DNA of 52,894 nt from an uncultured Ruminococcus sp. GTDB taxonomy: Bacteria > Bacillota > Clostridia > Oscillospirales > Ruminococcaceae. The stretch is from positions 1 through 52,894 of the forward strand of contig CAZUDC010000001.1 of the NCBI GenBank assembly GCA_964619105.1, read 5' to 3'. The notes beneath the pieces were generated by a model that was not told the origin of the DNA, did no database searches, and saw only the letters and a list, made by a program, of their open reading frames with translations. The translations under genes and the position numbers were made by a program. This document shows positions 1,832 through 42,075 of this stretch, one piece after another. Numbering within the stretch: position 1 is the stretch's first letter; each line of letters begins with the position of its first letter.

Positions 1832-1840
1832 CAGGCAGGA

Positions 1841-2545: not shown

Positions 2546-2563
2546 AATACATATTTCCTGAGA

Positions 2564-8119: not shown

Positions 8120-8510
8120 AGCCGATGTACCACAGGACGTAACCGAGTACAAGGAGCAGTTTTTCTTCGGAATGAACAGCCGACAGCTTATCTGCTCCGT
8201 ACTTATGATAGCTCTTGCGGTCCTCACATTTCTTGTGGGCAGCAAATTCATTTCCACGGACATTCTTGTGTATATAACTATTTTTGAGATCGCACCGCTT
8301 GCTGCGGTGGGATTTCTGAAATACAACGGAATGGGATTTGAGAAAATTGCAGCCACGGTCATGGATTTTTATGTTTCCAATCAGCGCAGAAGAATGGAGT
8401 ATCTTCCCGAAGAAATGCAGATACACGATGCTGTCAGGGAAATATATATCCGTCGGCTTGAAGAGGATCGCAGAGCTGAAAAGAAAAATATGAAACGAAA
8501 GAAGAGGTGA
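8112..8510 (+). CDS. PrgI-family (VirB3-like) membrane protein
   Basis: The start overlaps the previous stop (ATGATTAA). The sequence FFFGMNSRQLICSVLMIALAVL plus a second TM helix is the PrgI signature as I recall it. The gene lies directly upstream of VirB4. Confidence 0.65.
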   Translation: MIKADVPQDVTEYKEQFFFGMNSRQLICSVLMIALAVLTFLVGSKFISTDILVYITIFEIAPLAAVGFLKYNGMGFEKIAATVMDFYVSNQRRRMEYLPEEMQIHDAVREIYIRRLEEDRRAEKKNMKRKKR

Positions 8511-14575: not shown

Positions 14576-16912
14576 ATGCAGCTAATCATAAGCGAAAAGC
14601 CGTCCACAGCCAAAACAATAGCAGAAGTTGTGGGCGCAAACGAGAAAGAATATGACGGAAAGGAGTTCTGCTATAAATGCAATGGATATTACGTTGTCAA
14701 TGCCCGAGGACATCTTTACAGTTTGGGAATGCCCGAGGATTACGGGTACAGCAAGGCTTACAAACTGGACGAGCTGCCGATGTTCCCAACATTTGAGCTT
14801 TTCCCCGAATGTGTCAGTACAAACGGACTTCGCAGAATAATTGCAAAGCTCATAAATCTTCCCGAAGTGGAGTCAATAATCTGCGCAACGGACGCAGGGC
14901 GTGAGGGTGAGCTTATCTTCCGTCACATTTATCATGCGAATAAATGCACCAAGCCCGTTTATCGTCTTTGGTGCAATTCAATGACCGATGAAGCAATCAG
15001 AAAGTGTATGGAAAATCTTATGCCCGACAGCAATTTTGACGGTGAGTATGAAGCTGCATTTGCGAGGGAGCAGTCGGACTGGCTTATCGGTATGAATTTA
15101 TCCCGCCTTTACGGTGTAATGGATAACTACCCTCACAGAGTAGGAAGAGTGAAAACTCCCGTGCTTTCAATTATTGCCCAGAGAGATAATGAAATTGAAA
15201 AGTTTTCAAAATCCACATTATACCGTCTTGAAACAGATAACGGTGCGGTTTCCGAACAGGTATTTGCATCAAAGGACGAAGCGGAAAAGATGCTTGCGGC
15301 AAGCAAGGGTACAGATATGAATGTTCAGTCTGCCGTTACGGAAAATAAGAGCAAAAACCGACCGCTTCTCCATAGTCTGACTACCTTGCAGCAGGAAGCG
15401 AACAGGGTGTACGGATATACCGCAAAGGAAGTCCTTGAAGCGGCGCAGAGCCTTTATGAAAAGAAATTTACAACATATCCCCGAACCGACTGTAACTACA
15501 TTTCCGAGGATATGCGTGGAAAGATAATTACTGTTGTCAGCAAAATGGTTGAGCGTGAGGAATATTCCGAGCGCAGCCGAAAGCTTTTGGGACAGGCTCT
15601 CAATTTTGACAGTAGGATCATCAATGACAAGGCAATGGAGGGTCACGATCATCACGCCATTATCCCCGAAGAAAATACGGACAGCCTTGACAGACTTACC
15701 GAGCGTGAGAGAAATATTTATCATCTCGTAGTCAATCGTCTGCTTTGCGCTTTGGATAAGCCATACTCATACGAAGAAACAAGCTATGAATTTTGGTGCA
15801 ATGATATTACATACAAGTTGAAAACTATCAAACCTTTGGAGCTTGGTTGGAAAGCATACGATACCGAAGCCAATGAAGCAAATGCTTCCGAATTATCATT
15901 CGCCGAGGGCAGTACATTCATTCCCAAAGATATTCATATCAAGGTGTGTGAAACTCAGCCGCCAAAACACTATACCGATGCCAGTTTGCTTTCGGTAATG
16001 AACAATATCGACAACCGCATTGATGATGAGCTTCTGAAAACTGCGGTCAAGGGAAAAGGTATCGGAACGGAAGCCACAAGAGCAGATGTTATTGAACAGC
16101 TTATCGAAGTGGGCTATGCGGAGAGAAAAGGAAAGAATATCGTTTCAACTCCATTGGGCAGAGATTTTGTAAATTCGCTGCCCGAAAGTCTTAAATCCCT
16201 TGAAAGAACTGCGGAGTGGGAGCAGACCTTTAATAATATCAAGGAAAAGGGCTTTGATTCGGCAAAATTTCTTGATGAAATAAAGGCGTTTGTTACGTCT
16301 GTTGTAAATTATGAAAAAAATCCTTCAAGGCACAGAGAACCGCTGAAATACTGTAATCCAAATAGGCGTGAGCCTGGCGGTGTTTGCCCACGATGCGGAA
16401 AGAATATTTTCGAGGGTGAGAAGAATTTCTACTGCGAATCGGGTAAGGACGGCTGCGGTTTTACTGTCTGGAAGAATGACAAATTCATTGAGGACAACAT
16501 TTCGGCAGACAATATGAAAAATCTGCTTATCGGAAAGTCTGTAAAGCTCAGAGCAAGATCCAAGGACGGAAAGCTCTACACATCTGAATATGTGCTTGAT
16601 GACACAGGAAAATATGTCAATCTGAAAAGAGTTCAGACAGAGAAAATCTCTCTCGGCAAATGCCCGAAATGCGGCGGTGATGTATATGAGGGCGAAAAGA
16701 ATTTCTATTGCAGCGCAGGCAGGGATAAATGCGATTTTTCCATTTGGAAGGAAGATAGATTCAATTCCATAACCATAACTGCTGCCAATGTAAAAGACGT
16801 ACTTGAGGGCAAGCCTTTCTACAAGGTCAGGAAACAGGTGGGCGGCAATCCGATGAAAATAAAGTATGTTATGAGCATAAACGGAAAGTACGTTAATTTT
16901 CGGGAGGCATAA
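14576..16912 (+). CDS. topB: DNA topoisomerase III with two C-terminal zinc-ribbon repeats
   Basis: The Toprim start is MQLIISEKPS with ATDAGREGELIF. The active-site region is TYPRTDCNYIS. There are two copies of CP(R/K)CG..(F/Y)EGEKNFYC....C.F..WK. Confidence 0.9.
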   Translation: MQLIISEKPSTAKTIAEVVGANEKEYDGKEFCYKCNGYYVVNARGHLYSLGMPEDYGYSKAYKLDELPMFPTFELFPECVSTNGLRRIIAKLINLPEVESIICATDAGREGELIFRHIYHANKCTKPVYRLWCNSMTDEAIRKCMENLMPDSNFDGEYEAAFAREQSDWLIGMNLSRLYGVMDNYPHRVGRVKTPVLSIIAQRDNEIEKFSKSTLYRLETDNGAVSEQVFASKDEAEKMLAASKGTDMNVQSAVTENKSKNRPLLHSLTTLQQEANRVYGYTAKEVLEAAQSLYEKKFTTYPRTDCNYISEDMRGKIITVVSKMVEREEYSERSRKLLGQALNFDSRIINDKAMEGHDHHAIIPEENTDSLDRLTERERNIYHLVVNRLLCALDKPYSYEETSYEFWCNDITYKLKTIKPLELGWKAYDTEANEANASELSFAEGSTFIPKDIHIKVCETQPPKHYTDASLLSVMNNIDNRIDDELLKTAVKGKGIGTEATRADVIEQLIEVGYAERKGKNIVSTPLGRDFVNSLPESLKSLERTAEWEQTFNNIKEKGFDSAKFLDEIKAFVTSVVNYEKNPSRHREPLKYCNPNRREPGGVCPRCGKNIFEGEKNFYCESGKDGCGFTVWKNDKFIEDNISADNMKNLLIGKSVKLRARSKDGKLYTSEYVLDDTGKYVNLKRVQTEKISLGKCPKCGGDVYEGEKNFYCSAGRDKCDFSIWKEDRFNSITITAANVKDVLEGKPFYKVRKQVGGNPMKIKYVMSINGKYVNFREA

Positions 16913-18824: not shown

Positions 18825-20423
18825 ATGAGCGAACAGGAATTACGGGCGCTGCTTGCGAGAGTGGCTGCCCTTGAAACAAAAAATGCCGAGCTTGAAAGCA
18901 AGTTCGGGGAGCTTGAAAATCAGATCGACACGGTGAACAAGTTCATTTCGGCAATCACAGAGAGCCAGTCACTTGAAAACACTATGAACGAGATCGAATC
19001 GGTCACGAAGCAGCTTACTGACTGCGACAAGGCAACATTTTACTGCTATGACAGCACCAATGACAAATTTTTTTCGCACGGAGATTACCGCAGTTGGCAG
19101 GACGAACAGAGTGCAGAGAAGCTGAAAAATGCTTTTGAAAGCAAAGACACTTTCAGCGACGGAAAAGAAGCGGTCATTCCCCTTGTATCATCGGGCGGAA
19201 AGTCAGTGGGCGTTATTGTTGCGGAAAAGTCGGAGGGCTTTACTCCTGCCGATTACAACAATTTCCGTCAGGGCTGTCAGATAGTTAATACCGTTGAGCT
19301 TGCTCTGAAAAAGGAATTTGAGCATCAGGGCAGGATCACAGACGAGCTTACACATCTGAAAAACCGTCAGGGTCTGAACGAGTATCTTTCCAATACAATG
19401 TGCGGCAGCCTTAATGACGGAAAGACGGTCAACATCGTTATGTGCGACATTGACCACTTCAAAAATATAAATGATACATACGGTCATGATGCGGGAGATA
19501 TTATCCTCAAAGGCGTTGCCGATGTTTTGCAGGAGGGCACAAGAGCAGGTGCGGATTGTGCTTTCCGAATGGGCGGCGAGGAAATGGTTTGCATTATAAA
19601 TTCCGAACCCGAAATCGCATTGGATATTGCCGAAAGGCTCAGGGAAACCGTTGAAAACAAGGTCCACAGCATTGTGAATGACGGTAAGCCCGTAGATGTC
19701 AAGGTAACTGTATCAATGGGTGTTCACACAATGGCTCCGCAGGAAGAAGTTACGCCCGAAAATGCAAGAAAGGTTTTCAATGAGGAGTTCAAACACGCTG
19801 ACAAGGCGGTTTATGATGCAAAGGAAAGCGGCAGAAATAAGGTTGTAAGCAACAACGAGCAGATAAATCTCAAATACCTTGCTCTGAAAGCTGCGGAGAT
19901 CATGTGCGGCGGTGACAGGTCGCTTGTGAATGAAATGAAAGAATTTGCTGTAAGCTGTCTTATAAATGAAAAACCCGATCAGAACCACAACACCGTTATT
20001 GAAGCGTTAAAGGGGACTGCTGAACAGAGTCCCGCTATTGCGGAGGCGGCAAACAAAATTGCTGATAGGATCGCAGAAAAATTTCACGATGTCGGAAATG
20101 CTCCCGAAAAAGCTACCGAAAAGTCTGTAAAATTTTTCAATAAAAATGAGTACGGGAAAATTCAAAACAAGGCATTCATAAACACAGATTCCAAAACGGG
20201 ATTCAATATCACTCAGAAAGCACAGAAAGAGGGAGTGACCGTTTCCGCAAAGTTTTCCGAGGGTAAGGCAACGATCACTCTTGATGCGGTCAGGGACAAG
20301 GCATTTATTGATGCTGTAGAAAATATCGGGAAATGGGCTGAAAAGGTTCAGATAAAGTATGCCGAAAAGCACCCCGACAAAACACAGGAAAACAACAAAA
20401 ATAAAGATAACAATGCGAGATAA
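18825..20423 (+). CDS. Coiled-coil + GAF + GGDEF diguanylate cyclase with a roughly 190-aa C-terminal extension
   Basis: The RBS is GGAGGA. The GGDEF domain contains DIDHFKNINDTYGHDAGD and RMGGEEM (19572-19586). A GAF-like region lies at about 18945-19320. The C-terminal part carries the INTD...KFS...ATIT module at 20172-20327. Confidence 0.8.
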   Translation: MSEQELRALLARVAALETKNAELESKFGELENQIDTVNKFISAITESQSLENTMNEIESVTKQLTDCDKATFYCYDSTNDKFFSHGDYRSWQDEQSAEKLKNAFESKDTFSDGKEAVIPLVSSGGKSVGVIVAEKSEGFTPADYNNFRQGCQIVNTVELALKKEFEHQGRITDELTHLKNRQGLNEYLSNTMCGSLNDGKTVNIVMCDIDHFKNINDTYGHDAGDIILKGVADVLQEGTRAGADCAFRMGGEEMVCIINSEPEIALDIAERLRETVENKVHSIVNDGKPVDVKVTVSMGVHTMAPQEEVTPENARKVFNEEFKHADKAVYDAKESGRNKVVSNNEQINLKYLALKAAEIMCGGDRSLVNEMKEFAVSCLINEKPDQNHNTVIEALKGTAEQSPAIAEAANKIADRIAEKFHDVGNAPEKATEKSVKFFNKNEYGKIQNKAFINTDSKTGFNITQKAQKEGVTVSAKFSEGKATITLDAVRDKAFIDAVENIGKWAEKVQIKYAEKHPDKTQENNKNKDNNAR

Positions 20424-20445
20424 CGCAGAAATAGGAGGAGTTATT

Positions 20446-20820
20446 ATGAACAACGTAAATATAATGGGCAGGATCGCAACAGATCTTACACTCAGACCCG
20501 TAAGAAGTGCGGCGGGTTTTGCAGTCAATTTCAAGGTAGCTGTTGAAAGATTTTCGGGCGGCGGAAAGATAACGGATTTTATCCGCTGCACAGTCTGGGG
20601 CAAAACAGCCGAAAGAATTTGCAAGCACCTTTCAAAGGGCAATATGATCGCAATAAACGGCAGTCTTGTTACGGGGGATTATGTTGACAGAAAAGGGATA
20701 AGAAGAACAACGACCGATGTTTGTGTCAGAGAGTTTTATTTTACGGGTGACAAATACCGCAGAAATAAGGAGCAGGACAAAGCTGTTTTTGATGATCTCG
20801 GCGGCTTTGAGGAAGTATGA
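20446..20820 (+). CDS. ssb: Single-stranded DNA-binding protein (124 aa)
   Basis: The ATG at 20446 is preceded by AGGAGGAG. I trimmed it from the listed ORF 20359..20820. The OB-fold start is MNNVNIMGRIATDLTLR with TDFIRCTVWGKTAE. The tail is acidic (FDDLGGFEEV). Confidence 0.85.
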   Translation: MNNVNIMGRIATDLTLRPVRSAAGFAVNFKVAVERFSGGGKITDFIRCTVWGKTAERICKHLSKGNMIAINGSLVTGDYVDRKGIRRTTTDVCVREFYFTGDKYRRNKEQDKAVFDDLGGFEEV

Positions 20821-20831
20821 CGGGGTGACTT

Positions 20832-21200
20832 ATGATGAATGAATTTATGAAAGAAAATGAGGTCGGAAATTCGGCAGAAAATGTTGTTTCAGCCGATGAA
20901 AAGCACGAACCAAAGAAAGAAACTGCACCCGTTGATCGTATGGATAAGCTTTTCGAAAAGCGTGAACTTCTGAAAGAGAAGCTTGCAAAGTCCATTGAAA
21001 ATGAGAAGTCCGTTGCCAACAGAACGAAACTCATTGAAGCTCAAATTGCAAAGGTTGAAAAGGAAATTCATGCAGAAGAGGTCGCAAAAATGGACAAGTT
21101 CTGTTCGGAAAGAAATTTCACCTATGATGATATTATGGGATATTTTAAGCGGTTTTCCAAAGATGCAACAATGGAAGATATTTCAGCTATGACACAATAA
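20832..21200 (+). CDS. Coiled-coil hypothetical protein (122 aa)
   Basis: The ORF lies between ssb and the giant gene. It has a heptad-like K/E-rich core. Confidence 0.45.
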   Translation: MMNEFMKENEVGNSAENVVSADEKHEPKKETAPVDRMDKLFEKRELLKEKLAKSIENEKSVANRTKLIEAQIAKVEKEIHAEEVAKMDKFCSERNFTYDDIMGYFKRFSKDATMEDISAMTQ

Positions 21201-21218
21201 AAGACAGGAGGAAAAAAT

Positions 21219-24200
21219 ATGCCCGAATACATAAACAAGGAATATTACAGACAGCTTGCGCCCAATGACAGAACCTTTCTTAATCTTACGGCACAGAGCG
21301 TTAAGGCTGTTATGGACAGGCTTACTGCCGAAAATATCAAGTTTTCCGCTACTGTCGGCTACAAAAATACTATTACCGTGAGCAAGGCGGACAGCGAGCG
21401 TGCTATGGACATAGTGAAGTCATTTGCCGACAAAAACAGAAGCAGCGAAAGAATTATCGGAAATACTCAGTACAAGGACCTGCCGCCCTCCGAGAGAAAA
21501 TATATCAATACCGATCCCGAAACAGCATTGCAGGCAGCCAATATCCTTGCGGGAGATTCGGCTATAAAATTTTCTGGAAGAATAAATGCCAACAGCGCAA
21601 CAATAACGGTTGCGGGGGATAGCAACGCAGCCTTTGTCCGCAGGATAATTGATAACATTCAGAATATGGATCTTGTGAATGAGCTGCGTGAAAAGGGATA
21701 TGAGCGCATTGCCGACACCAACGGATTTGTGAATATCCGCAATATGCAGACAGGGGAAACCGCAGGCTTTGAAAGTCTTGGTGAAGCAAGAAATATGTTT
21801 CTTGACCACGACAATGAGTTTTTTCACCCCACGGAAATGCGTATTGAGGATAATTCGCTTTATCGTATCGTTTCCGATGAGGAAAATGCCGACTATTACA
21901 TTTCCGAATATGACCCCGAAACAGGTGAGGAAAGAGCTGTTTATCTTGATGATGAGGGACATTGCCCCACATTCGGAAATGTCAATGATGCCATTGCTTA
22001 TGCCGATGAGCATGACATAGGTTACACAAATACCACAGGGCAACTTATGGAGTGGATAACAAATGATGAAGAACGTGCTGCCGACAGGGAGATGTATGAA
22101 AGAAACATTATTGCTCAGACACGGTTCCCTCATGTGGATAATCGTTATCCCAATGATATAACCTACAATCCTGACAGCAAAGCATTTTCATTGGTATATT
22201 TCAATGAAGAGGGTGACGGCGGCGACGGTGAATTTATTGACATTACTGTTACGGAAGATGATGTTCTTGCAGCATATAACTCCGATGATTTTATGGAATA
22301 TATCTATCGGAATTGCAGGCAGAATGTGATAGATACACATTCGGGATATTTTGAGGATTACGCCAAGGCATATATAGACAAGCCCGAAAATGTTGTCAGA
22401 AGATATGATGATATTGCCGTCAGCACATATCTTGAAAAGAACACACCAATTATTCAGAAAGCAATCAAAGATGAGATAACCGCCGACAGCGCTTCACTCA
22501 TAATTGACGGCTATGAGGGGACTTGGTATGTGGTCGATACCGAAAATATTGACGGCAGGGAGCTTTTTCTGCTTGAAAGCGAAAATTACGGCGATGAAGC
22601 TGCGGGCATTATTATTGATAAGGACAGAAATGTTATTATGGGCGATGTTTGGAACGGCTTTTCGGACTATCACGAAAAGTATGATAACATCACTCCCGAA
22701 GAAAAGCTTGCCGACAAGGTCGAAGCCGAGTGGAAAGCTTTTCTTGAAAATATGAAAAAGGAAACTCCTGCGGTGCTTATTGAGTCGGCGTATGAAATAA
22801 GCACAAAGGACAACATTCAGACTTACATCACGGAGGAAAAGCTTGACCTGACGGAAGAGCAGATAAATGCGCTGCTTTCCTCAAGAAATATTCTGTCGGA
22901 GCTGTATGATGACTGGTTAAGTGATGAATATCTCAACAGTTATTCAGATGTTGCAGAGCTTCTGAAACTTACAGCCGACAAAATCAATGAAACCATTGAA
23001 AGAGAAAACATTGCATTGTTCCGAAAGGAAAATCTTGCGTGTGCTCATGATATTGATGCTTTTCTGAGCAAGCATTACAATGATAACACTCTTGACAGTA
23101 ATGCCGCATTGACAGAGCTTTTGGAGAGATATTCCCTTGAAAGAATACAGGTGGTTGTTGCTGCGAATCTTTACAAGAAAGATTTTGACGGACGTATTTC
23201 AAAGGAAAACTATAACTGGGGAAATGAGGTCATAGGTAAGCTCTCCGAAAATATGCGTATGGGCATAAATGCAAATTACCTTACAGCACACCCCGGACTG
23301 CTTAATCTGTTTGCAAATACTGTTCGTGAATATGAAGAAAAGAGCCTTGAAAAAGAGCAGGCTGCCCCCGAAAGAACAGCCGAGGATATTGCCGTCGGTG
23401 ATAGATACAGATACAAGGGTGCTGATGTTGAAGTTGTATCAATGAAGGGCATTTATCCCGATGATGTGGGTATTTCCAAAAAGGAACGTTCAGGCAGCAC
23501 AGTATATGCCGTTACATCTAATGTGGATAAGTATGAGTTGCACAGGAACGGGATTTATCTCGGAAACGGTGAAAAAACGGTTGTATCCGAGCTTGATACA
23601 GCTAAAAAATATATCGAGGATTTTCTTGATTCGGAGTATTCAAGTACAGCGGATTTTTCTGATATGCAGCACATTTCTATCGGTTATACGGAAATTGGTT
23701 CGGAGGAGCAGGGAGATCACAGCTTGCAGGTCGAAGCCGACCTTGAAAACTTTTCCGTATCATATTTCATTGATGATGAGCTTGCAAAAACAGAAAAATA
23801 TGATTCTCTTGAACAGATGAACCGTGAGCATTTGTCGGCTCTGAGTTTTGAGGATATGCTTAACGTCGGCACGACAGAGCTTGACCGAATTTTAGAAGAG
23901 AAAAATGCACAGGTCAAGGCTGTTCTTGCGGTATCTCAATACGACACAAACAGATACTATATTGCAAATGATGTTACCGAAGAATCTGTCAGAAATGCGA
24001 TAAAAAATTTCGACAGGCTTTTTATGGATCTCTGCACTCTCGGCGGAACTCAGATAACCGAAGCGGAGTTTGCGCAGTATTCGCAGACTGACGGAGTTAC
24101 TGCCATTGACGTAAATATCGACGAGCAGACAATGCACATTTACGGTGCGGAAAATCCCATAACATCTTTTGCGGAGATAAAGGGTATTGATGAAATATCG

Positions 24201-27200
24201 GCGCACCTTGACCTTGATAATAACACGATCAACTTTTCTGTTATAACGATTGATGATGAAGAACCTTTTGTGACCGGTCAGTATGTCGGAAAAGATGATA
24301 TAACCGCACTTGAGGAATATCAGGAATACATTGCCGATACGGGGAAGCAGTTTGCCGATGTTACTGTTGAGTATTATCAGCTGGGCGGCGATAATGAATC
24401 ATATAATGCCGATGATGACGAGCTTGAATATATTTCCGAACATCTTGAAGATGTGCTGAGGAATAAATCTGCACTCTGCCTTGAATCGGAAACATATTCG
24501 GTAACTGCTCCCACGGAGCTTCTCGAAACGGAAGAATCCGAGCAGGAAGAACCCGAACACGAATCGGAAATTATCTGGACACCAATTCCCGAAACTTCTG
24601 ACGATAACGGTGCTCCCACAAGCTACTTTGCAAAATATAACGATGAAACATTCTGGATATCCGAAAATTTCAATGGAAAATTCGATATTGAGGAACAGGA
24701 CAGTCAGGGCAATTTTGCTCCGATAAATGATGATTTCAGTGGATTTATGCGCAGAGGAGAAGCCGAGAAATATTTTGAAGAGCATATTTCGGAATATATA
24801 GCCGAGCGTGACGAAGCTATCCTTGATGCCATTGTTGGAAATATCACCGAGCCAACAGCAGAGAAACGTGAAGAATTTGCACGAAAGAACAACACTCTTA
24901 ACAACTTTTTTAATAATAATCCGCTGGCTGTTTTCCGTGAGATCATCAAGTCGGCAGGAATTGAACCTACCGAGGATATTACCGTCAGTGAAACAAAGAA
25001 AATATTCAATTCTCTGAAAAGCACCGAAATTTCTCTTATGGGATATACCTACACCCTTGAATTTGAGCCGCACGATAACAGTCTTTCCGTCAGGGACACG
25101 GCATCAGACCGTGAAGCAAATTTTGTGTGGGGACACGCAAAGGAGCTTATGTATCTCATTGCCAACGAGAATAATATTTCCCGTGAAAATCTCATACACA
25201 ACGAGGTCATGCGTGGCACAGGCTTTCAGGACGGTAAATTCAGGGTTGCCGATTTTTATGAAACATCACCCTCAAAGAAAGATTTTGCGGATTTCTTAAA
25301 GAAAGAGTTCGGCATTGGCGGTCACAGCGGTGACGGACCCGTAAAATTCACAAATTATGATTCCAAAGGAATTGAGATCGAAACAACAGCGGGCAAGGAA
25401 AATTTCACATGGTCTGAGGTCGCAAATGTAATATCCAATCTTATGGATAAGGGTGAATACATTACTCAGAAAGATATAGATAACCGAATCCGTAATGCAC
25501 AGTGGATCATCAACAATGCAAATGAGAATACGGACTTCACACGGCTTGTTTATGCTCACGAAATTTTGCAGAAATACGGTATTGAAAAGCCTGCACCCGA
25601 TAATGAATACAAGATATATCAGCTGAAAAATAATGCCGAAAATCACGCTATACGCTTTGAGAGCTTCACTGATGCCGAGCGTTACGGCGAAGCTGCCAAA
25701 CCCGAAAATTATGAGCTTGTATATACGGGCAGCCTTGATGATTTCGAGGACAGCAACAAGCTTGAAGCAATATATACGAAATTCAACCTTGACCGTCCCG
25801 AAGATTTCAAGGGACATTCTCTTTCCGTCAGCGACATTATCGTGCTGAACAATGAAGCAAATTATGTAGATACATACGGTTTTGTTGATGTTTCCGACAG
25901 ATTTTTGGGCAGGGAAAAAGAGAAAATCAATTTGAATGATTATGAAAATATCCGTCTTGTCCGCAGAACCGAGTGGAACGATAAAGATCTCAGTAATGCC
26001 GAAAATCCTGCTTTTGAGGAAATAACCGAAAGCTACACTCCCGATGAGGACGGCTCATTTGTTAAGTATGCTCACAATACGACCAACAGCATTTTTGTTG
26101 ATGTTTGGGAGAATGAAAACAGCGTCTCTTCCGATGATATGATTGCAGATATTGCAAAGCATCTTGAAAATATGAGTAATGGCGTATCGAGCGAGGATTA
26201 TCGCATAGAGCTTACCGAAAAAGACGGTAATGTGCGTAAACTTGACAACAACTATTTTGATTTTGTGATTGAGAAGAGCAAGGTCATTGCTGAAACAATG
26301 GATTTTCCCGAAATTCCTGTTGATGAAATGAGCACGGCTGTTGATGCCGAAAACAGCAGAACGGATTACGGATATGAGCCTGCTATCGGGGATATTCTTG
26401 AGAATGACAGCGGACTTTTCCGCATTTCCGATATTTCGGAAAACATGATAACTCTTGAAGAAACATCGAGCTTGTTTCACGATTCAGAAAGAATGACCCT
26501 TGCCGATTTTATAAACCGTGGATATTCGCTTGTGGAAAAGGCAGAACCAATCGAAAAAGTCAAGTCTCCACTGGATACTTTGGAGAATATTCATTCCGAT
26601 GAGGTCAAGTCTCCGGTGGATACTCACAGCAATAATTTTGTGATTACCGATGAAAATCTCGGAGTAAACGGACCAAAGGCAAGGTTTAATGCAAATATTG
26701 CTGCGGTGGAAACTCTGAAAAACATTGAAGCAGAGGGCAGAGCCGCAACTCCCGATGAACAGAAGATACTTTCGGGCTATACGGGCTGGGGAGCTATCCC
26801 GCAGGCATTTGACCCGAATAATTCCGACTGGAAGAACGAGTATGAGAAGCTGAAAACTGTTCTTGACGATGCAGAATACTCCGAAGCAAGGCGTTCTACC
26901 CTTAATGCGCACTATACCTCTCCTATTGTAATAAACGCAATATATGAGGGACTTGCCAACATTGGCTTTGAAAAGGGAAAGATTTTAGAGCCTGCAATGG
27001 GCATCGGCAATTTCTTTGGAGCTATGCCCGAAAATATGCGTGAAAGTGAGCTTCACGGCGTTGAGCTTGATGATCTGACGGGAAGAATTGCAAAGCAGCT
27101 CTATCCCGATGCGGATATTCAGATAAAGGGTTTTGAAAAGACCGCTTTTGAGAATAACAGCTTTGATGTGGTGGTGGGTAACGTTCCCTTCGGAAATTAC

Positions 27201-30200
27201 AAGGTGAATGACAAGGACTACAACAAGAATAATTTCCTTATCCACGATTATTTTATAGCAAAATCTCTCGACAAGGTACACCCCGGAGGAGTGGTAGCAG
27301 TTATTACCTCAAAGGGAACAATGGATAAGGAAAATGACGATATCCGCAAATATATTGCACAGAGAGCAGAGCTTTTAGGTGCTATCCGTTTGCCCGACAC
27401 AGCTTTCAAGGCAAATGCGGGAACGGAAGTCGTATCGGATATTCTGTTTTTACAGAAGCGTGAAATACCTATTGAGATAGATCCCGACAAGGAGGGCTGG
27501 ATAAAGCTCAGTGTATCTGCCGACGGCTTTGATGTTAATAACTATTTTGCTGAGCACCCCGAAATGGTAATGGGTGATTTCAAGGAGGTAAGCGGCAGAT
27601 TCGGTAACGAAGTGACCGTAAAGCTTGATGATCCGTCTATGCTGAAGAGCTTGCTTTCCGAAGCTGTACAGAACATAAAGGGCGAATACAAGGCTGCATC
27701 TGTTATGAAAAATGTTGAGGAGATAAATGCCGATGTTATTCCCGCACCTGCCGAATCCCGTAAATTCAGTTATCAGGCGGTAAACGGCGAACTCTATTAC
27801 AGAGAAGCGGGGGACACTATGGAAAAGGTTCCTGTCAAAGGTAAGGGCAAGGACAAAATCGCCCGTGCTGTTGCTATGGTTGAACTTCGTGATACGGTCA
27901 GAGAGCTGCTTGATTTGCAGATGAACAATTACGACAGCTCCCTTGATGAAAGCATTTCCGAAAGCAGAGTCAAGCTCAACAAGGTATATGACGCGTTCGT
28001 TGCAAAGTACGGTTTTGTTTCCGATAAAAAGAACAGGGACGCATTTAAGGGTGACGATGATTACCAGCTCCTTTCCGCACTTGAAACCGAAAACAAGGAG
28101 ACAGGTACATACACCAAGGCTGACATTTTTGAGCATAACACGGTAAAGCCCAAGACCATTGCCGAACACGTTGAAACAGCACAGGAAGCGCTTATCATAT
28201 CCGTATCGGAAAAAGCAAAGGTGAATTTCGACTTTATGTCCGAGCTTTGCGGTATGGATAAGAACAGAATGATAGCCGACCTAAAAGGACAGATTTTCAG
28301 ACTTCCGCAGGCGGAGGAAAAGTATGTGACCGCAGACGAATATTTGACGGGTAATATCCGCAGGAAAATTGCAGAGCTGAACAATGCTCCCGAGGGTATG
28401 GACGTTTCGGAAAACAGGGCGGCTCTTGAAAAAGCAATCCCGACGAGAGTTGAAGCAAAGGACATTTCCGTAAAGCTGGGTTCTCATTGGATCGCTCCCG
28501 AATATATACGGCAGTTTATCTGCGAAAAATTCAATCCCGATTGGACAGGCAGGAATGAAATGACTGTTCAGTACAGCAAGGCGGCAGGCGAGTGGAAAAT
28601 CGAAGATGTCAATGGTGCTTCAAAGAAAAATTACACCGCAACAAATGTATTCGGAACGCACAGAATGAACGCATACAAGATTTTGGAGGGTATCCTTAAC
28701 AACAGCGATTTGCAGGTTAAGGACCGCAAGAAGGACGAGAACGGTTATGAAATGCGTGACGAAAAGGGCAACTATATCCTTGTGGTAAATCAGGAGGAAA
28801 CCAAGGCGGTACGTCAGGTTGCCAATCTCATTAAGTCCGAATTTCAGGACTGGATTTTTAAAGATCCCGAAAGACGTGAAGATTTGGTTCAGACCTACAA
28901 TGAAATGTACAACTCAATACGTCCGAGAGAATATGACGGCAGTCACCTTAATTTCGTTGGAATGAACACTGATATTACTCTGAAAGAACATCAGAAAAAC
29001 GCCGTTGCAAGAGCTTTATACGGCGGCAATACGCTGCTTGCGCACGCTGTCGGCGCTGGAAAAAGCTATGAGATGATAGCAATAGCTATGGAGGGAAAAA
29101 GGTTGGGACTGCATAATAAATCCCTTTTTGCCGTTCCCAACAGCCTTACTGAGCAAATGGGCAATGATTTCAGAAAGCTTTATCCCAATGCGAATATTCT
29201 TGTTGCCACAAAGAAAGATTTTGAAAAGGCAAACCGCCTGAAATTGTTTGCAAAGATCGCAGCCAACGACTGGGACGCTGTTATCGTCGGTCACACACAG
29301 TTTGACCGAATGGGTCTATCTCCCGAAAGAGAGCAGCAGTACATAACGGAAGAGCTTGCAAAGCTTCGTGAGGAGCTGGAGTATGCCGCAGAATTTGGCG
29401 AAAAGAGCTTTTCTGTCAAGAAGATTGAAAACGCCATTGCAAGCTATGAGGACAGGCTGAACAAGCTCAATGATGCACAGGTCAAGGACGATTTCATTGA
29501 TTTTGAAAAGCTGGGCTTTGACAAGCTGTTCATCGACGAGTGCCATATGTATAAGAACCTCGCCACAGCAACAAAAATGCACAATGTATCGGGCCTCGGC
29601 AGCGGAGGTGCAGCACGTTCCTTTAATCTGCTTATGAAGTCAAGATATATGGACGAGATCACGGGCGGTAAGGGGCAGACTTATGCCAGCGGAACGCCTA
29701 TCTCGAATTCAATGTGCGAGCTTTATACTATGATGCGTTATTTGCAGGCGGATATACTGAAAGACTGCAATATCAATCATTTCGATGAATGGGCTGCGGA
29801 TTTCGGCGATGTCAAGACCGATTACGAATTAAAACCGGAGAGTGACGGCAAATATCAGCTGAAAACACGATTTGCAAAGTTTACGAACCTGCCTGAGCTT
29901 ATGGGTATGTTCAAGGAATGTGCAGATATACGAACTGCCGATACCCTTGACCTTGAAAAGCCAAAAGCACACTATCATGAAGTAGTGGCAGAGCCTTCAA
30001 AGACGCAGAAAAAGCTGATAAAATCTCTTTCCAAGAGAGCTACGGCTATCCGTGACGGAAAGGTCGATCCCCGTGATGATAATATGCTTGTCATTACCAA
30101 TGATGGCAGAAAAATAGGACTTGACCAGAGATTGATAAATTCAACTCTGCCCGATGAAAAGGGGTCAAAGGTTAATCTCTGCATTGATAATGTTTTTGAC

Positions 30201-32171
30201 ATTTACAGCAAAACGGCTGACAAACGCAGTACGCAGTGCATTTTCTGCGATATGTCCACTCCAAAGTCCGACTCCCGACAGGACAGATTTGAGGTTTACA
30301 GACCTAACAGCAGCAAGGAGCTTGACTATGAGCTTCTCCGCAAGAAAATAGGTCTTGGCAATGGTGATGAGGATAATCCAAAGAACATAAATACCTTTGT
30401 TGATGTAAAAAGCTACATTGACAAGCATTCTCCCGAGAAGTCCGACAAGCTGAGTGAGGGTGACATTGTAGTTATCCGAAAGCCTAATTTGGACGATGGA
30501 AAGATGTATTCACAGGCAGCAATATTTGAAAACGGCAGGCTTAATGATGCCGATTCTCCCGAACTTCTTGAAAAGTTTTTTATGTCAGATATTGAAGATA
30601 TTCCGCCAAAGGAATTTAACGTGTATGATGATATTAAGAGCAAGCTTATGGACAGGGGAGTGCCTGAGAATGAAATTGCATTTATCCATGATTATGATAC
30701 TGCGGAAAAGAAGCAGAAGCTTTTTGATAAGATGAACACAGGTGATATTCGTATTCTGTTAGGTTCGACTGCAAAGTGCGGTGCGGGAATGAATGCACAG
30801 AAAAAAATGATTGCTCTGCATCATCTGGACTGTCCGCTGCGTCCGTCTGATATGCAGCAGCGTAATGGTCGAATCGAACGTCAGGGCAATGAAAATTCAG
30901 AAGTCGATATATTCCGTTACGTTACAAATAAATCATTCGACAGTTATTTGTTCCAGATCCTTGAGAACAAGCAGAAGTTCATTTCACAGGTAATGACAAG
31001 CAAGACACCTGAAAGAACCTGTGCTGATATGGACGAAACAGCCCTTGACTATGCGGAGGTAAAGGCACTCTGCGCAGGCAATCCCTTGATAAAAAAGGAA
31101 ATGGAGCTACAAGCCCTTATAAAGGACCTGAAAATGGAAAAATCACGATATTCTGAGTATATCTATGAATTGCAGGATAATATCCGTGTGAAGATACCGG
31201 AAAAGCTTCGTACCAATGAGCTTGTCATTGAGCATCTCCAAAAAGATATGGATACTGCAAATAAGGCTCCGAAGTTTGTTGACGAGGACGGCAAGGAGAC
31301 ACACCCTGTCACTATTATGGGTACAGTGTATAATGACCGCAAGGAAGCAGGCACGAAGCTGAAATCGCTCATTTCCGCAAATGCTGCAAAGATAGCGGAG
31401 GGGAAGATGTTTGATGTGGGAGAATACAGAGGTTTCAAGCTGTCGGTATTCTTTGATGTTCTCTCAAAGCACGTTAAGGCTTGCCTTGACGGTGAAAAGC
31501 ATCATTACTGCGACCTCAATCCCGAAACCGACACAGGCAATCTTATCCGACTGGATAACTGTATCAACAACATACAGAAAAGCATTGAAGATCTCAAAAG
31601 TTCCAATGAAACTATGAGGTCAGAGCTTAAACAAATGGAGGCTGATGTGGACAAGCCGTTCTCAAAGGCGGAAGAGCTTTTGAAAGCAGAAACCGAAATA
31701 GAGGAGGTTCATCTCCAGCTGACGAAATTTGAAATGACAGATGATACGCTGCAAAAGGAAGTCTTTGAACATCTTGCTGATATGTTTCCGCAGGTGCTTG
31801 AGGGTGACAGCGAATATGTGAAATTCAGCGTAAATGGCGGAGAAGATCTTCATGTGGAAATGAACGGTGATGTCCTCACGATCTGTCAGATCTATGAGCA
31901 GAACGGTGACCTTATGTATGACCCAAGAATTGACCTCAGGGTTGATTATGACAATCAGAAGGTAATTCCGTTAAACTATGAAAACAGCGGAATGGGAGTG
32001 TATGAGGAGTATGACTCTGAATTAACACCCGAAACCGCAAAGCAGATGAATGATTTGCTTGATTTTATGGACAGCACTATGCTTGAAAATATTGAAGCAG
32101 CAGGTTATGAGCCTATGGAGATAGAATCTGACAGAGATAGAAATGTCCGTGAAAATGATATGAGCAGATAA
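21219..32171 (+). CDS. Giant polyvalent protein (3650 aa): N-terminal repeat modules, YodL-like domain, N6-adenine DNA methyltransferase, SNF2-type helicase
   Basis: This is a single 10,953-nt ORF. MTase motif I is EPAMGIGNFF (26988-27020) and motif IV is GNVPFG (27177-27194). The helicase has Walker A GAGKS (29052-29066), DECH (29535-29546) and QQRNGRIERQGN (30855-30890). A YodL-like segment IYQLK...SLSVSDIIVL lies at about 25608-25895. Confidence 0.9.
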   Translation: MPEYINKEYYRQLAPNDRTFLNLTAQSVKAVMDRLTAENIKFSATVGYKNTITVSKADSERAMDIVKSFADKNRSSERIIGNTQYKDLPPSERKYINTDPETALQAANILAGDSAIKFSGRINANSATITVAGDSNAAFVRRIIDNIQNMDLVNELREKGYERIADTNGFVNIRNMQTGETAGFESLGEARNMFLDHDNEFFHPTEMRIEDNSLYRIVSDEENADYYISEYDPETGEERAVYLDDEGHCPTFGNVNDAIAYADEHDIGYTNTTGQLMEWITNDEERAADREMYERNIIAQTRFPHVDNRYPNDITYNPDSKAFSLVYFNEEGDGGDGEFIDITVTEDDVLAAYNSDDFMEYIYRNCRQNVIDTHSGYFEDYAKAYIDKPENVVRRYDDIAVSTYLEKNTPIIQKAIKDEITADSASLIIDGYEGTWYVVDTENIDGRELFLLESENYGDEAAGIIIDKDRNVIMGDVWNGFSDYHEKYDNITPEEKLADKVEAEWKAFLENMKKETPAVLIESAYEISTKDNIQTYITEEKLDLTEEQINALLSSRNILSELYDDWLSDEYLNSYSDVAELLKLTADKINETIERENIALFRKENLACAHDIDAFLSKHYNDNTLDSNAALTELLERYSLERIQVVVAANLYKKDFDGRISKENYNWGNEVIGKLSENMRMGINANYLTAHPGLLNLFANTVREYEEKSLEKEQAAPERTAEDIAVGDRYRYKGADVEVVSMKGIYPDDVGISKKERSGSTVYAVTSNVDKYELHRNGIYLGNGEKTVVSELDTAKKYIEDFLDSEYSSTADFSDMQHISIGYTEIGSEEQGDHSLQVEADLENFSVSYFIDDELAKTEKYDSLEQMNREHLSALSFEDMLNVGTTELDRILEEKNAQVKAVLAVSQYDTNRYYIANDVTEESVRNAIKNFDRLFMDLCTLGGTQITEAEFAQYSQTDGVTAIDVNIDEQTMHIYGAENPITSFAEIKGIDEISAHLDLDNNTINFSVITIDDEEPFVTGQYVGKDDITALEEYQEYIADTGKQFADVTVEYYQLGGDNESYNADDDELEYISEHLEDVLRNKSALCLESETYSVTAPTELLETEESEQEEPEHESEIIWTPIPETSDDNGAPTSYFAKYNDETFWISENFNGKFDIEEQDSQGNFAPINDDFSGFMRRGEAEKYFEEHISEYIAERDEAILDAIVGNITEPTAEKREEFARKNNTLNNFFNNNPLAVFREIIKSAGIEPTEDITVSETKKIFNSLKSTEISLMGYTYTLEFEPHDNSLSVRDTASDREANFVWGHAKELMYLIANENNISRENLIHNEVMRGTGFQDGKFRVADFYETSPSKKDFADFLKKEFGIGGHSGDGPVKFTNYDSKGIEIETTAGKENFTWSEVANVISNLMDKGEYITQKDIDNRIRNAQWIINNANENTDFTRLVYAHEILQKYGIEKPAPDNEYKIYQLKNNAENHAIRFESFTDAERYGEAAKPENYELVYTGSLDDFEDSNKLEAIYTKFNLDRPEDFKGHSLSVSDIIVLNNEANYVDTYGFVDVSDRFLGREKEKINLNDYENIRLVRRTEWNDKDLSNAENPAFEEITESYTPDEDGSFVKYAHNTTNSIFVDVWENENSVSSDDMIADIAKHLENMSNGVSSEDYRIELTEKDGNVRKLDNNYFDFVIEKSKVIAETMDFPEIPVDEMSTAVDAENSRTDYGYEPAIGDILENDSGLFRISDISENMITLEETSSLFHDSERMTLADFINRGYSLVEKAEPIEKVKSPLDTLENIHSDEVKSPVDTHSNNFVITDENLGVNGPKARFNANIAAVETLKNIEAEGRAATPDEQKILSGYTGWGAIPQAFDPNNSDWKNEYEKLKTVLDDAEYSEARRSTLNAHYTSPIVINAIYEGLANIGFEKGKILEPAMGIGNFFGAMPENMRESELHGVELDDLTGRIAKQLYPDADIQIKGFEKTAFENNSFDVVVGNVPFGNYKVNDKDYNKNNFLIHDYFIAKSLDKVHPGGVVAVITSKGTMDKENDDIRKYIAQRAELLGAIRLPDTAFKANAGTEVVSDILFLQKREIPIEIDPDKEGWIKLSVSADGFDVNNYFAEHPEMVMGDFKEVSGRFGNEVTVKLDDPSMLKSLLSEAVQNIKGEYKAASVMKNVEEINADVIPAPAESRKFSYQAVNGELYYREAGDTMEKVPVKGKGKDKIARAVAMVELRDTVRELLDLQMNNYDSSLDESISESRVKLNKVYDAFVAKYGFVSDKKNRDAFKGDDDYQLLSALETENKETGTYTKADIFEHNTVKPKTIAEHVETAQEALIISVSEKAKVNFDFMSELCGMDKNRMIADLKGQIFRLPQAEEKYVTADEYLTGNIRRKIAELNNAPEGMDVSENRAALEKAIPTRVEAKDISVKLGSHWIAPEYIRQFICEKFNPDWTGRNEMTVQYSKAAGEWKIEDVNGASKKNYTATNVFGTHRMNAYKILEGILNNSDLQVKDRKKDENGYEMRDEKGNYILVVNQEETKAVRQVANLIKSEFQDWIFKDPERREDLVQTYNEMYNSIRPREYDGSHLNFVGMNTDITLKEHQKNAVARALYGGNTLLAHAVGAGKSYEMIAIAMEGKRLGLHNKSLFAVPNSLTEQMGNDFRKLYPNANILVATKKDFEKANRLKLFAKIAANDWDAVIVGHTQFDRMGLSPEREQQYITEELAKLREELEYAAEFGEKSFSVKKIENAIASYEDRLNKLNDAQVKDDFIDFEKLGFDKLFIDECHMYKNLATATKMHNVSGLGSGGAARSFNLLMKSRYMDEITGGKGQTYASGTPISNSMCELYTMMRYLQADILKDCNINHFDEWAADFGDVKTDYELKPESDGKYQLKTRFAKFTNLPELMGMFKECADIRTADTLDLEKPKAHYHEVVAEPSKTQKKLIKSLSKRATAIRDGKVDPRDDNMLVITNDGRKIGLDQRLINSTLPDEKGSKVNLCIDNVFDIYSKTADKRSTQCIFCDMSTPKSDSRQDRFEVYRPNSSKELDYELLRKKIGLGNGDEDNPKNINTFVDVKSYIDKHSPEKSDKLSEGDIVVIRKPNLDDGKMYSQAAIFENGRLNDADSPELLEKFFMSDIEDIPPKEFNVYDDIKSKLMDRGVPENEIAFIHDYDTAEKKQKLFDKMNTGDIRILLGSTAKCGAGMNAQKKMIALHHLDCPLRPSDMQQRNGRIERQGNENSEVDIFRYVTNKSFDSYLFQILENKQKFISQVMTSKTPERTCADMDETALDYAEVKALCAGNPLIKKEMELQALIKDLKMEKSRYSEYIYELQDNIRVKIPEKLRTNELVIEHLQKDMDTANKAPKFVDEDGKETHPVTIMGTVYNDRKEAGTKLKSLISANAAKIAEGKMFDVGEYRGFKLSVFFDVLSKHVKACLDGEKHHYCDLNPETDTGNLIRLDNCINNIQKSIEDLKSSNETMRSELKQMEADVDKPFSKAEELLKAETEIEEVHLQLTKFEMTDDTLQKEVFEHLADMFPQVLEGDSEYVKFSVNGGEDLHVEMNGDVLTICQIYEQNGDLMYDPRIDLRVDYDNQKVIPLNYENSGMGVYEEYDSELTPETAKQMNDLLDFMDSTMLENIEAAGYEPMEIESDRDRNVRENDMSR

Positions 32172-42036: not shown

Positions 42037-42075
42037 TATTATGAATAAGTATGTATCTATTAAGGAGAAGTGCCA

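Follow-up and report, generated by a model that had tools for sequence, protein, structure and literature searches.

A tandem-forming module shared by a predicted diguanylate cyclase and a giant polyvalent protein of a Ruminococcus element, a candidate docking tag

Bartonella Bep effectors and alphaproteobacterial relaxases carry a bipartite VirB/VirD4 T4SS signal that consists of the BID domain, a helical bundle, and a basic tail. [quoted passage not shown] For ArdC, transmission in the course of invasion has been described (PMC6222260). In Iyer et al. (PMC5512222), GGDEF already figures among the domains of polyvalent proteins, and the transfer of these proteins through Gram-positive T4SSs is put forward by inference only.

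Three copies of one domain in two proteins

The window analysed, a stretch of 52,894 nucleotides from an uncultured Ruminococcus sp., contains, as parts of a conjugative element of gut Clostridia, a cyclase gene and a gene for a giant polyvalent protein. An earlier note had pointed to a module of about 55 aa shared by the C-terminus of the first and, twice, by the N-terminus of the second; the segments it quoted (cyclase aa 450-501, giant protein aa 94-147 and aa 3-66) are exact in coordinates and sequence. The three copies, C, M1 and M2 (Table 1), are indeed homologous, and the same portable domain thus stands on otherwise unrelated proteins of one element, as had been proposed. In Smith-Waterman comparisons, similarity was far above chance, with z = 7.3 for M1-M2 and z = 5.9 for cyclase-M2 (0/2000 shuffles as good in both cases), and z = 4.0 for cyclase-M1 (9/2000). 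Alignment of family profiles with hhalign gave P = 1.2e-8, 4.8e-8 and 3.9e-5, respectively. An independent profile, for which 131 copies of the module in other proteins were used and none from the window's two families, recognised all three copies. That they belong to one real domain family, tied to polyvalent effectors, we hold as close to certain.

Table 1. Position of the features discussed and the evidence for each
Feature	Position	Strand	Evidence
VirD4/TraG-type coupling protein, 710 aa	3860..5992	+	Pfam T4SS-DNA_transf E = 2.1e-67, TraG-D_C E = 1.5e-33
Diguanylate-cyclase gene, 532 aa	18825..20423	+	Pfam GGDEF E = 1.9e-36; NCBIfam TIGR00254 E = 1.1e-39; family alignment
Predicted active-site motif GGEEM, aa 250-254	19572..19586	+	sequence; family alignment
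Module copy C, cyclase aa 435-511, VKFFNKNEYGKIQNKAFINTDSKTGFNITQKAQKEGVTVSAKFSEGKATITLDAVRDKAFIDAVENIGKWAEKVQIK	20127..20357	+	HMM envelope 435-511; independent profile E = 4.9e-11 (aa 436-501)
Conserved cap and tail following the final module, 'GKWAEKVQIK...NNAR'	20328..20420	+	family alignment; AF2
SSB gene, between cyclase and giant genes	20359..20820	+	Pfam SSB E = 1.6e-18
Giant polyvalent protein, 3650 aa	21219..32171	+	Pfam; translation
Module copy M1, giant aa 1-72	21219..21434	+	hmmsearch i-E = 2.1e-26; independent profile 1.6e-17; AF2
Module copy M2, giant aa 77-150	21447..21668	+	hmmsearch i-E = 9.9e-29; independent profile 2.6e-16; AF2
Third conserved giant N-terminal domain, aa 150-202	21666..21824	+	alignment; AF2

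The real length of the module is 72-77 aa rather than 55, as it starts about 15 residues before 'YINTD' with a strand and a turn, and carries the N-terminal signature (I/Y)(I/F)(G/N)(N/K)xxY (start segments 'RIIGNTQYKDL' in M2, 'KFFNKNEYGKI' in the cyclase and 'EYINKEYYRQL' in M1). The earlier note had rightly seen a module in M1, but in the wrong register, pairing 'EYINKEYY' with 'KYINTD'; the true equivalent of 'YINTD' is 'FLNLT' (aa 20-24). The family consensus reads IIGNTxYKxIxDKxYxKxxxExAxxxAxxLxxxGIKFSGRxxGDxTTLTVSKAD. A search of the window's six-frame ORFs with the independent profile found no fourth copy, the next best E-value being 0.12. Weaker repeats of similar pattern had been suggested for a 234-aa protein (1841-2545), a suggestion that finds no support: hmmsearch (E = 7.1 and 0.76), hhalign (P = 0.23 with the single sequence; P = 0.019 and 2.5% probability with the family profile) and shuffles (z-scores -0.06 to 2.1) gave no significant match.

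The predicted fold is ferredoxin-like alpha/beta, a short N-terminal strand and turn being followed by beta-alpha-beta-beta-alpha. The AF2 model of cyclase aa 431-515 (pLDDT 79.8) has, in model numbering (add 430), a strand at 5-7, a helix at 9-14, a strand at 18-24, a helix at 25-38, strands at 42-47 and 50-56, a helix at 61-71 and a strand at 78-81; giant aa 1-202 were modelled with pLDDT 87.5. Foldseek matches, to de novo ferredoxins and to domains of the ACT and PII-like kinds, had E-values of at least 0.02 and TM-scores of about 0.5-0.57; the c-di-AMP receptor PstA and ACT domains were among the best neighbours (0.56-0.57). As modelled, this fold is generic and gives no functional clue, which counts against a docking role. 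The near-invariant residues are Y, S, T and one K/R. Aromatic and basic residues are conserved at column 12 (Y/F in 78/78 copies), column 20 (K/R in 77/78), column 26 (Y/F in 62/78) and column 50 (F/Y in 70/78). The net charge is close to neutral (median +1, 5th-95th percentile -3 to +5).

Carriers, domain partners and gene neighbourhood

The cyclase is composed of a coiled coil and a GAF-like N-terminus (Pfam matches to GAF_3 and DUF3369 were below threshold only), a GGDEF domain (aa 172-339), a helical linker, one module and a polar tail. Its GGEEM motif, a variant of GG(D/E)EF, is invariant throughout the cyclase-plus-module family. The canonical I-site, RxxD five residues before the GG motif, is absent, as read from the sequence. 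The protein appears to be a stand-alone member of the effector set, combining a GAF-like sensor, a predicted GGEEM cyclase and a module; as GGDEF is listed by Iyer et al. (PMC5512222), its place among polyvalent-protein effectors is plausible. In the segment that follows the module, the cyclase family keeps W504, A505 and K507 without exception, and the extra strand that AF2 models in 'VQIK' (model residues 78-81, about aa 508-511) may mimic the strand with which a further module would begin.

The giant protein begins with the two modules and a further conserved domain, modelled as a helix, three strands and a helix and without a Pfam match, then LPD18, DUF3848, DUF3849 and YodL; an Eco57I-type adenine methylase, a SNF2/ResIII helicase and DUF6908 make up the remainder. 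The SSB ORF overlaps the end of the cyclase gene, its OB domain starting from ORF residue 30. This ssb neighbour and the methylase-helicase would also suit a leading-region model, with proteins made in the recipient and not injected.

An exhaustive search recovered 355 representative protein clusters at E <= 1e-3 (165 at E <= 1e-10), with 1 to 7 module copies per protein; 88 of the 147 carriers listed bear the module twice and 44 three times, and the median linker is 6 aa. No membrane segment was detected in these 147 carriers (hydrophobic 19-mer, Kyte-Doolittle mean of at least 1.6), which are predicted to be soluble and cytoplasmic. Pfam, NCBIfam and PHROGs hold no model for the module, and the database names of carriers derive from their other domains. 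Among 65 mid-size carriers, the partners were DUF4316 (26), ArdC-N (19), MuF_C (16), zincin peptidases (16, 14 and 5), YodL (13), DUF3849 (12) and GGDEF (7), along with primase and TopoIII; SNF2-methylase is a further partner in the family. All are mobile-element or polyvalent-protein domains, and the module was not found in the housekeeping contexts that the earlier note had considered. Two observations count against a docking tag: no relaxase domain was present in the 65 carriers scanned, and in carriers of at least 350 aa the module is C-terminal (52), N-terminal (32) or internal (29), with copies midway along giant proteins as well, and is therefore not confined to termini.

In 22 loci, a GGEEM cyclase bears 1-4 modules at its C-terminus. 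Seventeen of them had enough downstream sequence to be evaluated, and in all 17 a giant ORF with two N-terminal modules lies downstream. Elsewhere, a module-only protein of 271 aa (three modules) adjoins the start of a module-bearing giant gene, three tagged proteins stand side by side (L004), and an ArdC-peptidase with 3 modules accompanies a DnaG-type primase with one (L005). Two to three module-bearing proteins are adjacent in L004, L005, L026-L028 and those cyclase loci whose sequence extends far enough; a 24 kb R. albus stretch (L003) had only one. Multiple tagged proteins in each element are thus the rule. From its distribution, partners and synteny, we therefore conclude that the module belongs, as an accessory and non-catalytic domain, to the polyvalent-protein effector set of Clostridia conjugative elements.

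Possible roles of the module

Of the roles considered, some form of shared docking tag is the most likely, and we give it about an even chance. The module, joined to several separately encoded effector-type enzymes and mostly as a 2-3-copy tandem, would be a common address gathering different enzymes at one shared partner, several copies adding avidity. The preferred partner would be the transfer machinery, i.e. the hexameric T4SS coupling protein, and tagged proteins, the cyclase included, may be recruited either to be exported to the transferred DNA or to act together with it. We infer the VirD4/TraG-type protein of the window as a candidate docking partner; that the module binds a coupling protein is possible, if doubtful, and the explanation as a whole is tentative. 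The earlier interpretation is partly supported: since the module is real and in related elements marks several separately encoded effector-type proteins, it is a testable candidate docking or delivery tag. Protein transfer and early expression in the recipient are equally compatible with these results. Under the latter, tagged proteins would be made from the entering DNA without being injected, and the module would localise them there or be a solubility or spacer unit. The neighbourhood of TopoIII, ssb and an anti-restriction-type methylase-helicase, which we take to resemble plasmid leading regions, fits this improbable alternative, but its spacer version accounts poorly for some 10 near-invariant positions kept across 355 clusters and for a stand-alone, widely conserved 271-aa module protein.

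Modules of separately encoded proteins might also bind each other, in a non-covalent polyvalency: cyclase, module-only protein, ArdC and primase would dock on the module pair of the giant and act or travel as a complex, possibly by strand complementation, where the N-terminal 'IIGN' strand could complete a neighbour's sheet. The constant cyclase-giant pairing, the adjacency of carriers in several loci (L003 apart) and the three-module protein abutting a giant gene agree with this, as do the AF2 models: an additional strand stands behind the final helix of the cyclase module, in the place that the opening strand of M2 takes behind the final helix of M1 in the tandem. Tandem packing in cis explains the same strands, however, and the purpose of the complex is left unexplained; we consider such assembly unlikely. 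Equally little weight goes to a ssDNA-binding repeat, whose RRM-like tandems, by analogy with ArdC-N or topoisomerase C-terminal repeats, would tether enzymes to the incoming strand or nucleoid. It would suit the ferredoxin-like fold, the tandem arrays with short linkers, the conserved aromatic and basic positions (columns 12, 20, 26, 50), partners such as ArdC-N, primase, TopoIII and SNF2-methylase, and the ssb gene between the two carrier genes. Against it stand the near-neutral charge, the absence of RNP-type motifs from the module and of any specific nucleic-acid-binding match by Foldseek; the conserved aromatics are perhaps just core residues, and it is hard to see what a diguanylate cyclase, MuF_C or YodL would gain from being tethered to DNA. 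Finally, a small-molecule sensor of ACT/PII type, for example for c-di-GMP or another nucleotide, would couple both genes, since the modules of both proteins would read the product of the cyclase. The ACT and PstA neighbours, the strict co-location of the two genes and the missing I-site are in its favour, but the structural matches are non-specific, no conserved charged pocket-type motif is present, and the module is common where the sequence examined has no cyclase gene (L005, L026), so that we judge it very improbable.

Comparison with described systems

The module resembles ACT, PII/PstA and RRM domains in its predicted beta-alpha-beta-beta-alpha(-beta) order and, for ACT and PstA, in Foldseek scores, but has no sequence relationship to them and possesses an extra N-terminal strand and turn; RNP motifs and ACT ligand-site signatures are both absent. 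Like the SXT/R391 ICEs with DgcK and DgcL, the element encodes its own GGDEF enzyme, which differs in its position in an effector/anti-restriction block and in combining GGEEM, a GAF-like sensor and an effector-set module. The SXT enzymes are not known to carry such a module.

Sog (ColIb) and TraC (RP4) are conjugatively transferred primases (Rees and Wilkins 1990, cited in PMC6222260), and a DnaG-type primase is among the module carriers (L005); theirs are Gram-negative systems, with transfer determinants that differ from the module. As with the domains of Iyer et al. (PMC5512222), the module is globular, not unifiable with known families, and found both in giants with ArdC-N, zincin MPTase, YodL and the SNF2-methylase dyad and in 'solo' proteins beside T4SS genes. 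It differs from them in being repeated in tandem, up to 7 times, and no Pfam LPD model matches it, in Pfam scans where only some of the paper's 40 LPDs came up. Its presence on several separate proteins of one element is a property not found in the passages of that paper used here.

The BID domain and its basic tail offer a parallel in usage, as a folded portable domain present in 1-4+ copies on unrelated effectors of one T4SS. The two are not homologous, the module being alpha/beta; BID is shared with relaxases, whereas no relaxase partner of the module was seen in the 65 carriers scanned, and the host system here is Gram-positive. As a portable tag on T4SS effectors, BID provides a functional precedent for reading the module as a docking tag.

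Homology, extent and predicted fold of the module

The module found at the C-terminus of the GGDEF cyclase, and twice at the N-terminus of the 3650-aa polyvalent protein (the giant), is a conserved domain, cytoplasmic and non-catalytic, which occurs in tandem and recurs on heterogeneous effector-type proteins within a single class of conjugative elements. The three peptides on which the earlier note had based the resemblance were exactly placed. BLASTP alone gave a weak signal, with E = 0.002 for the cyclase copy against the second giant copy (M2, aa 77-150) and no match between M2 and the first copy (M1, aa 1-72). When Smith-Waterman scores were compared with those of 2000 shuffles, the pairs M1-M2 (z = 7.3) and cyclase-M2 (z = 5.9) were above all shuffles, and cyclase-M1 (z = 4.0) above all but 9. 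Homologue profiles of the three segments matched each other (P = 1.2e-8, 4.8e-8 and 3.9e-5). An independent profile of 131 module copies, all from proteins outside the two families of the window, found M1 (1.6e-17), M2 (2.6e-16) and the cyclase copy (4.9e-11), and gave no other match better than E = 0.12 in the six-frame translation of the window. The signal was thus weak by BLASTP and clear once correct boundaries and family information were used.

The alignment gives a unit of 72-77 residues, in place of the roughly 55 first proposed. It opens with a conserved strand-turn element, (I/Y)(I/F)(G/N)(N/K)xxY(K/R)xI, about 15 residues ahead of 'YINTD'. The 'EYINKEYY' of copy 1, formerly read as an anchor, belongs to this N-terminal strand/turn element, and the counterpart of 'YINTD' in that copy is 'FLNLT'. 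Weak repeats had also been noticed in a 234-aa ORF (1841-2545); they received no support from hmmsearch, from hhalign with single or family profiles, or from shuffling. Residues 77-134 of this ORF align by hhalign with the helix-hairpin-helix part of the module, but at a probability of 2.5%, and we rejected it as a weak carrier.

The module consensus is IIGNTxYKxIxDKxYxKxxxExAxxxAxxLxxxGIKFSGRxxGDxTTLTVSKAD. Near-invariant positions are an aromatic Y/F (78/78), a K/R (77/78), the S of 'FSG' (77/78) and the second T of 'TxTV' (76/78); the columns contain no catalytic-looking constellation, and the net charge is close to neutral. AlphaFold2 gave confident models both of giant aa 1-202 (pLDDT 87.5) and of the cyclase copy (pLDDT 79.8). 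They share one topology, strand, short helix, strand, helix, strand, strand, helix, the cyclase model having a further strand ('VQIK') after the last helix. No structural family emerged from Foldseek searches of PDB and BFVD with the 202-aa two-module and the single-module models. Only generic folds were returned, namely de novo ferredoxins, ACT, PII-like PstA and BMC (TM 0.5-0.57, E at least 0.02 throughout), and at these scores the predicted topology would fit the beta-alpha-beta-beta-alpha-beta order of ACT and PII only with the strand that follows helix 2 included. The column statistics show no conserved loop, Gly-rich or charged, of the kind that would suggest an ACT/PII-type ligand-loop signature. 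Profile matches to PDB sequences were all to framework 3 of antibody lambda light chains, a look-alike beta-hairpin of 20-30 residues: the central hairpin of the module, 'RFSGRI..ATITVSG', resembles 'RFSGS.SGN.ATLTISG' of lambda FR3 (dozens of matches, best E = 7e-4). In our judgement, this likeness arose by convergence on a stable hairpin.

Whether the query was the module itself, a module-only protein or a carrier, scans against Pfam, NCBIfam and PHROGs returned no model that covers the module. Public sources call the carriers 'GGDEF', 'DUF3849', 'DUF4316' or 'YodL domain-containing', that is, by their other domains. DUF4316 (PF14195, a 43-position Pfam model), an initial candidate, was rejected as the module: it is a short, distinct motif that immediately precedes the modules in some carriers (in one of them, P0110, DUF4316 lies at aa 282-313 and the modules at aa 329-577), and has no Pfam match in the window proteins. 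Nor does any Pfam model of an LPD, the accessory domains of polyvalent proteins, match the module; LPD18 matches the giant elsewhere. Literature searches on DUF4316 and on ICE cyclases in recipients found no mention of the module.

The conjugative element and its cyclase

The window is a conjugative element of Firmicutes type, whose nearest relatives are gut Oscillospiraceae and Ruminococcus MAGs. Its principal genes are collected in the table. The right part contains sugar-metabolism genes, a secreted nuclease, a type I restriction-modification system and a large serine recombinase. The latter, at the right end, is probably the integrase of the element, which would then cover most of the window.

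Features of the window, with coordinates on the forward strand
Feature	Coordinates	Domains or remarks
Interrupted gene (+)	1665-3856	in-frame TAA at 1829-1831 and 2543-2545
VirD4/TraG coupling protein	3860-5992	
PrgI	8070-8510	
VirB4-like ATPase	8507-11575	
Topoisomerase III	14576-16912	
GGDEF protein (cyclase)	18825-20423	Pfam and NCBIfam
SSB	20359-20820	
3650-aa polyvalent protein (giant)	21219-32171	LPD18, DUF3848, DUF3849, YodL, Eco57I-type methylase, SNF2/ResIII helicase, DUF6908
Third N-terminal domain of the giant (aa 150-202)	21666-21824	
Non-specific DNA/RNA endonuclease fused to Big_2 domain	37802-38926	
Type I R-M locus	42070-49957	hsdM, hsdS, hsdR
Gene between hsdS and hsdR	45607-46977	Schlafen/AlbA_2, HATPase_c_4, Fic-like_C
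Large serine recombinase	51136-52794	Resolvase, Recombinase, Zn_ribbon_recom, DUF4368

Several loci deserve separate mention. A longer gene, immediately upstream of the coupling protein gene, has the 234-aa ORF as its middle part; its homologues (73-95% identical) continue through 'KLQQAG(M/T)SFEY' and 'PELSDENTYFLRV' and have Q and E, respectively, at the two stop codons. The interruption might mark a pseudogene, arise from a sequencing error or reflect recoding. As listed, the SSB ORF shares 65 nt (20359-20423) with the end of the cyclase gene, and its OB domain begins only at ORF residue 30, so that the true start is probably at a downstream codon. Close to the endonuclease-Big_2 gene, on the opposite strand, lie a DUF4417 gene and an M78/HTH pair, and these genes, the endonuclease included, look like cargo or defence. 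After both modules, all relatives of the giant have a third conserved N-terminal domain, 'LVNELREKGYERIADTNGFVNIRN..GE..GF', which was modelled with confidence and has no family match.

The GGDEF domain of the cyclase (aa 172-339) matches PF00990 (E = 1.9e-36) and TIGR00254 (E = 1.1e-39). Scanning 185,579 species genomes gave 20 loci where a GGEEM protein carries the module at its C-terminus, to which two metagenomic contigs add, for a total of 22 (L001-L002 and L006-L025). GGEEM (19572-19586 in the window), with Met where the GG(D/E)EF active-site motif has Phe, is found throughout this cyclase-plus-module family, and is invariant in the 8 members aligned. The inhibitory site of such enzymes is defined as RxxD, five residues upstream of the GG motif; it is absent from the family, the window sequence TRAGADCAFRMGGEEM having RxxxD spacing. 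The N and D of 'KNINDTYGHDAGD', which we take to specify guanine, are retained. In the alignment with the window protein, the family keeps one order of parts: a coiled coil and a GAF-like region come first, then the GGEEM cyclase, a helical linker and the modules, and last a polar tail preceded by an invariant W-A-x-K cap. Module number on the cyclase differs between lineages: it is one in the window protein and in close relatives, at 84-92% identity over module and tail, and two to four in relatives at 42-53% identity (L017-L024, against window 20127-20357). Cyclase-type modules form a subfamily of their own, 40-50% identical among themselves and 11-26% to other modules; the sharing with the giant is therefore ancient and not a recent duplication within the element. 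A giant ORF with two N-terminal modules begins 0.6-5 kb downstream in each of the 17 loci whose downstream sequence is long enough.

Among genomes, the cyclase tail has its closest relative (L006, CAVBUH010000089.1, 92% identity) in a bin labelled Selenomonadaceae (Negativicutes), all other cyclase loci being Oscillospiraceae, Ruminococcus or unclassified Clostridia; the label reflects either mis-binning or cross-class transfer. In two loci (L020, 11085-12392, and L024, 6019-7311), a 431-436-aa ORF directly follows the cyclase gene, ahead of the giant gene; its single module match is weak (E = 5e-5 to 9e-5), and it may be a degenerate carrier.

Distribution of the module among effector-type proteins

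The module is more widely spread than the earlier note had seen, besides the correction of its boundaries and of one sub-claim. When 1.84 billion representative proteins were searched exhaustively with the HMM, 355 clusters (50% identity) matched at E <= 1e-3, 165 of them at E <= 1e-10. Among the 147 carriers listed, there are one to seven copies per protein (two in 88, three in 44), separated by linkers of median length 6 residues. In listed carriers of at least 350 aa the module is C-terminal (52), N-terminal (32) or internal (29). A cell-surface or membrane role was rejected, since none of the 147 listed carriers has a membrane-type hydrophobic segment.

Partner domains were counted by a Pfam scan of 65 mid-size carriers. 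DUF4316 was present in 26, ArdC-N in 19, MuF_C in 16, Peptidase_M78, DUF6782 and MPTase-PolyVal in 16, 14 and 5, YodL in 13, DUF3849 in 12, and LPD25, LPD26, a DUF3991/Toprim primase and TopoIII in one each; no relaxase family was among them. Each of the 7 GGDEF proteins in this set carries two C-terminal modules, and GGEEM replaces GG(D/E)EF in every one. Giant carriers measure 2000-3800 aa. Most of these partners are domains described for polyvalent proteins by Iyer et al. 2017 (PMC5512222), where GGDEF is also listed. The module is the only feature found to be common to five or more different effector types.

The elements examined encode two or three module-bearing proteins each, except for a 24-kb Ruminococcus albus stretch (L003), which has one. 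In one element (L005), three modules sit on an ArdC-peptidase and one on a DnaG-type primase; another (L004) has three adjacent tagged proteins, one with DUF4316 and two with MuF_C. A widely distributed 271-aa protein consists of three modules only, and adjoins the start of a gene for a 2655-aa giant with further modules. The context is conjugative in L005 and L026 (VirB4/TraG P-loop, CD1107-like and TopoIII genes), and pRUMAL02 of R. albus 7, a conjugative megaplasmid, has the module in a 'YodL domain-containing protein'. Curated collections of plasmids and phages contain almost no members of the family: a tblastn search of annotated plasmids and phages, with four tandem modules as queries, matched one plasmid, pRUMAL02, and two unannotated faecal 'Bacteriophage sp.' contigs.

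A candidate docking tag and its relation to known systems

The earlier note had read the module as a possible recognition domain for the type IV secretion system (T4SS) or its coupling protein, or as a DNA or relaxosome docking domain, with the cyclase as a possible transferred effector. This interpretation is partly supported, in that the module is a common tag on proteins of the effector set. We favour the reading that it would serve as a shared docking tag, for which the most economical partner would be the transfer apparatus, in the form of the hexameric coupling protein. That partner is most economical because the tagged set includes a primase and ArdC, kinds of proteins linked to transfer, and because delivery is the sole need that all tagged proteins would share. 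The primases Sog and TraC are transferred in Gram-negative systems. ArdC is described as transmitted during invasion (PMC6222260). Two other readings fit almost as well: modules might bind each other and assemble split effectors onto the giant, or they might tether the tagged proteins to single-stranded DNA. Early expression in the recipient, instead of protein transfer, is also compatible with the data.

A bolder form of the docking-tag reading is that the module is a folded translocation domain of Gram-positive conjugative T4SSs, analogous in function to BID, the T4SS signal domain of Bartonella, and marking a whole protein set for injection into the recipient. The set would comprise the primase, the ArdC-peptidase, the methylase-helicase giant, the MuF_C proteins and the GAF-GGEEM diguanylate cyclase. 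We regard this as unlikely. If it were true, the element would inject a c-di-GMP synthase, resetting the second-messenger state of its new host on entry. We know of no equivalent folded translocation domain in Gram-positive systems, where, to our knowledge, the choice of protein substrates by conjugative T4SSs is not understood. The module provides a concrete handle on this choice, and on the possible delivery to recipients of the giant polyvalent proteins of Clostridia elements; it is compact, and suited to reporter fusion, deletion and use as bait. The 355-cluster family is new to the libraries searched, and many of its gut-Clostridia carriers are now named by other domains alone. The mobile-element diguanylate cyclase is thereby placed in the effector set, and not among the cargo genes.

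The BID domain, found on Bartonella effectors and relaxases, is a precedent for a shared docking tag. It is a helical bundle, whereas the module is predicted by AlphaFold2 to be alpha/beta, ferredoxin-like; and BID is on effectors and relaxases of one T4SS lineage, whereas no relaxase was among the partners of the 65 carriers. Given these differences in fold and in relaxase linkage, the module is not a member of the BID family. The module agrees with LPD-type domains (Iyer et al. 2017) on several counts. Like them, it is globular and without match to known families (Pfam, NCBIfam, PHROGs), occurs in large multi-domain proteins that join disparate enzymes (MPTase, ArdC-N, SNF2-methylase), and belongs to conjugative elements, beside T4SS genes (the window has those for the coupling protein, PrgI and VirB4, as well as TopoIII), a solo version, the 271-aa protein, also being present. 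It may be one of the published LPD families, and in kind adds one more accessory domain to the polyvalent-protein system already known.
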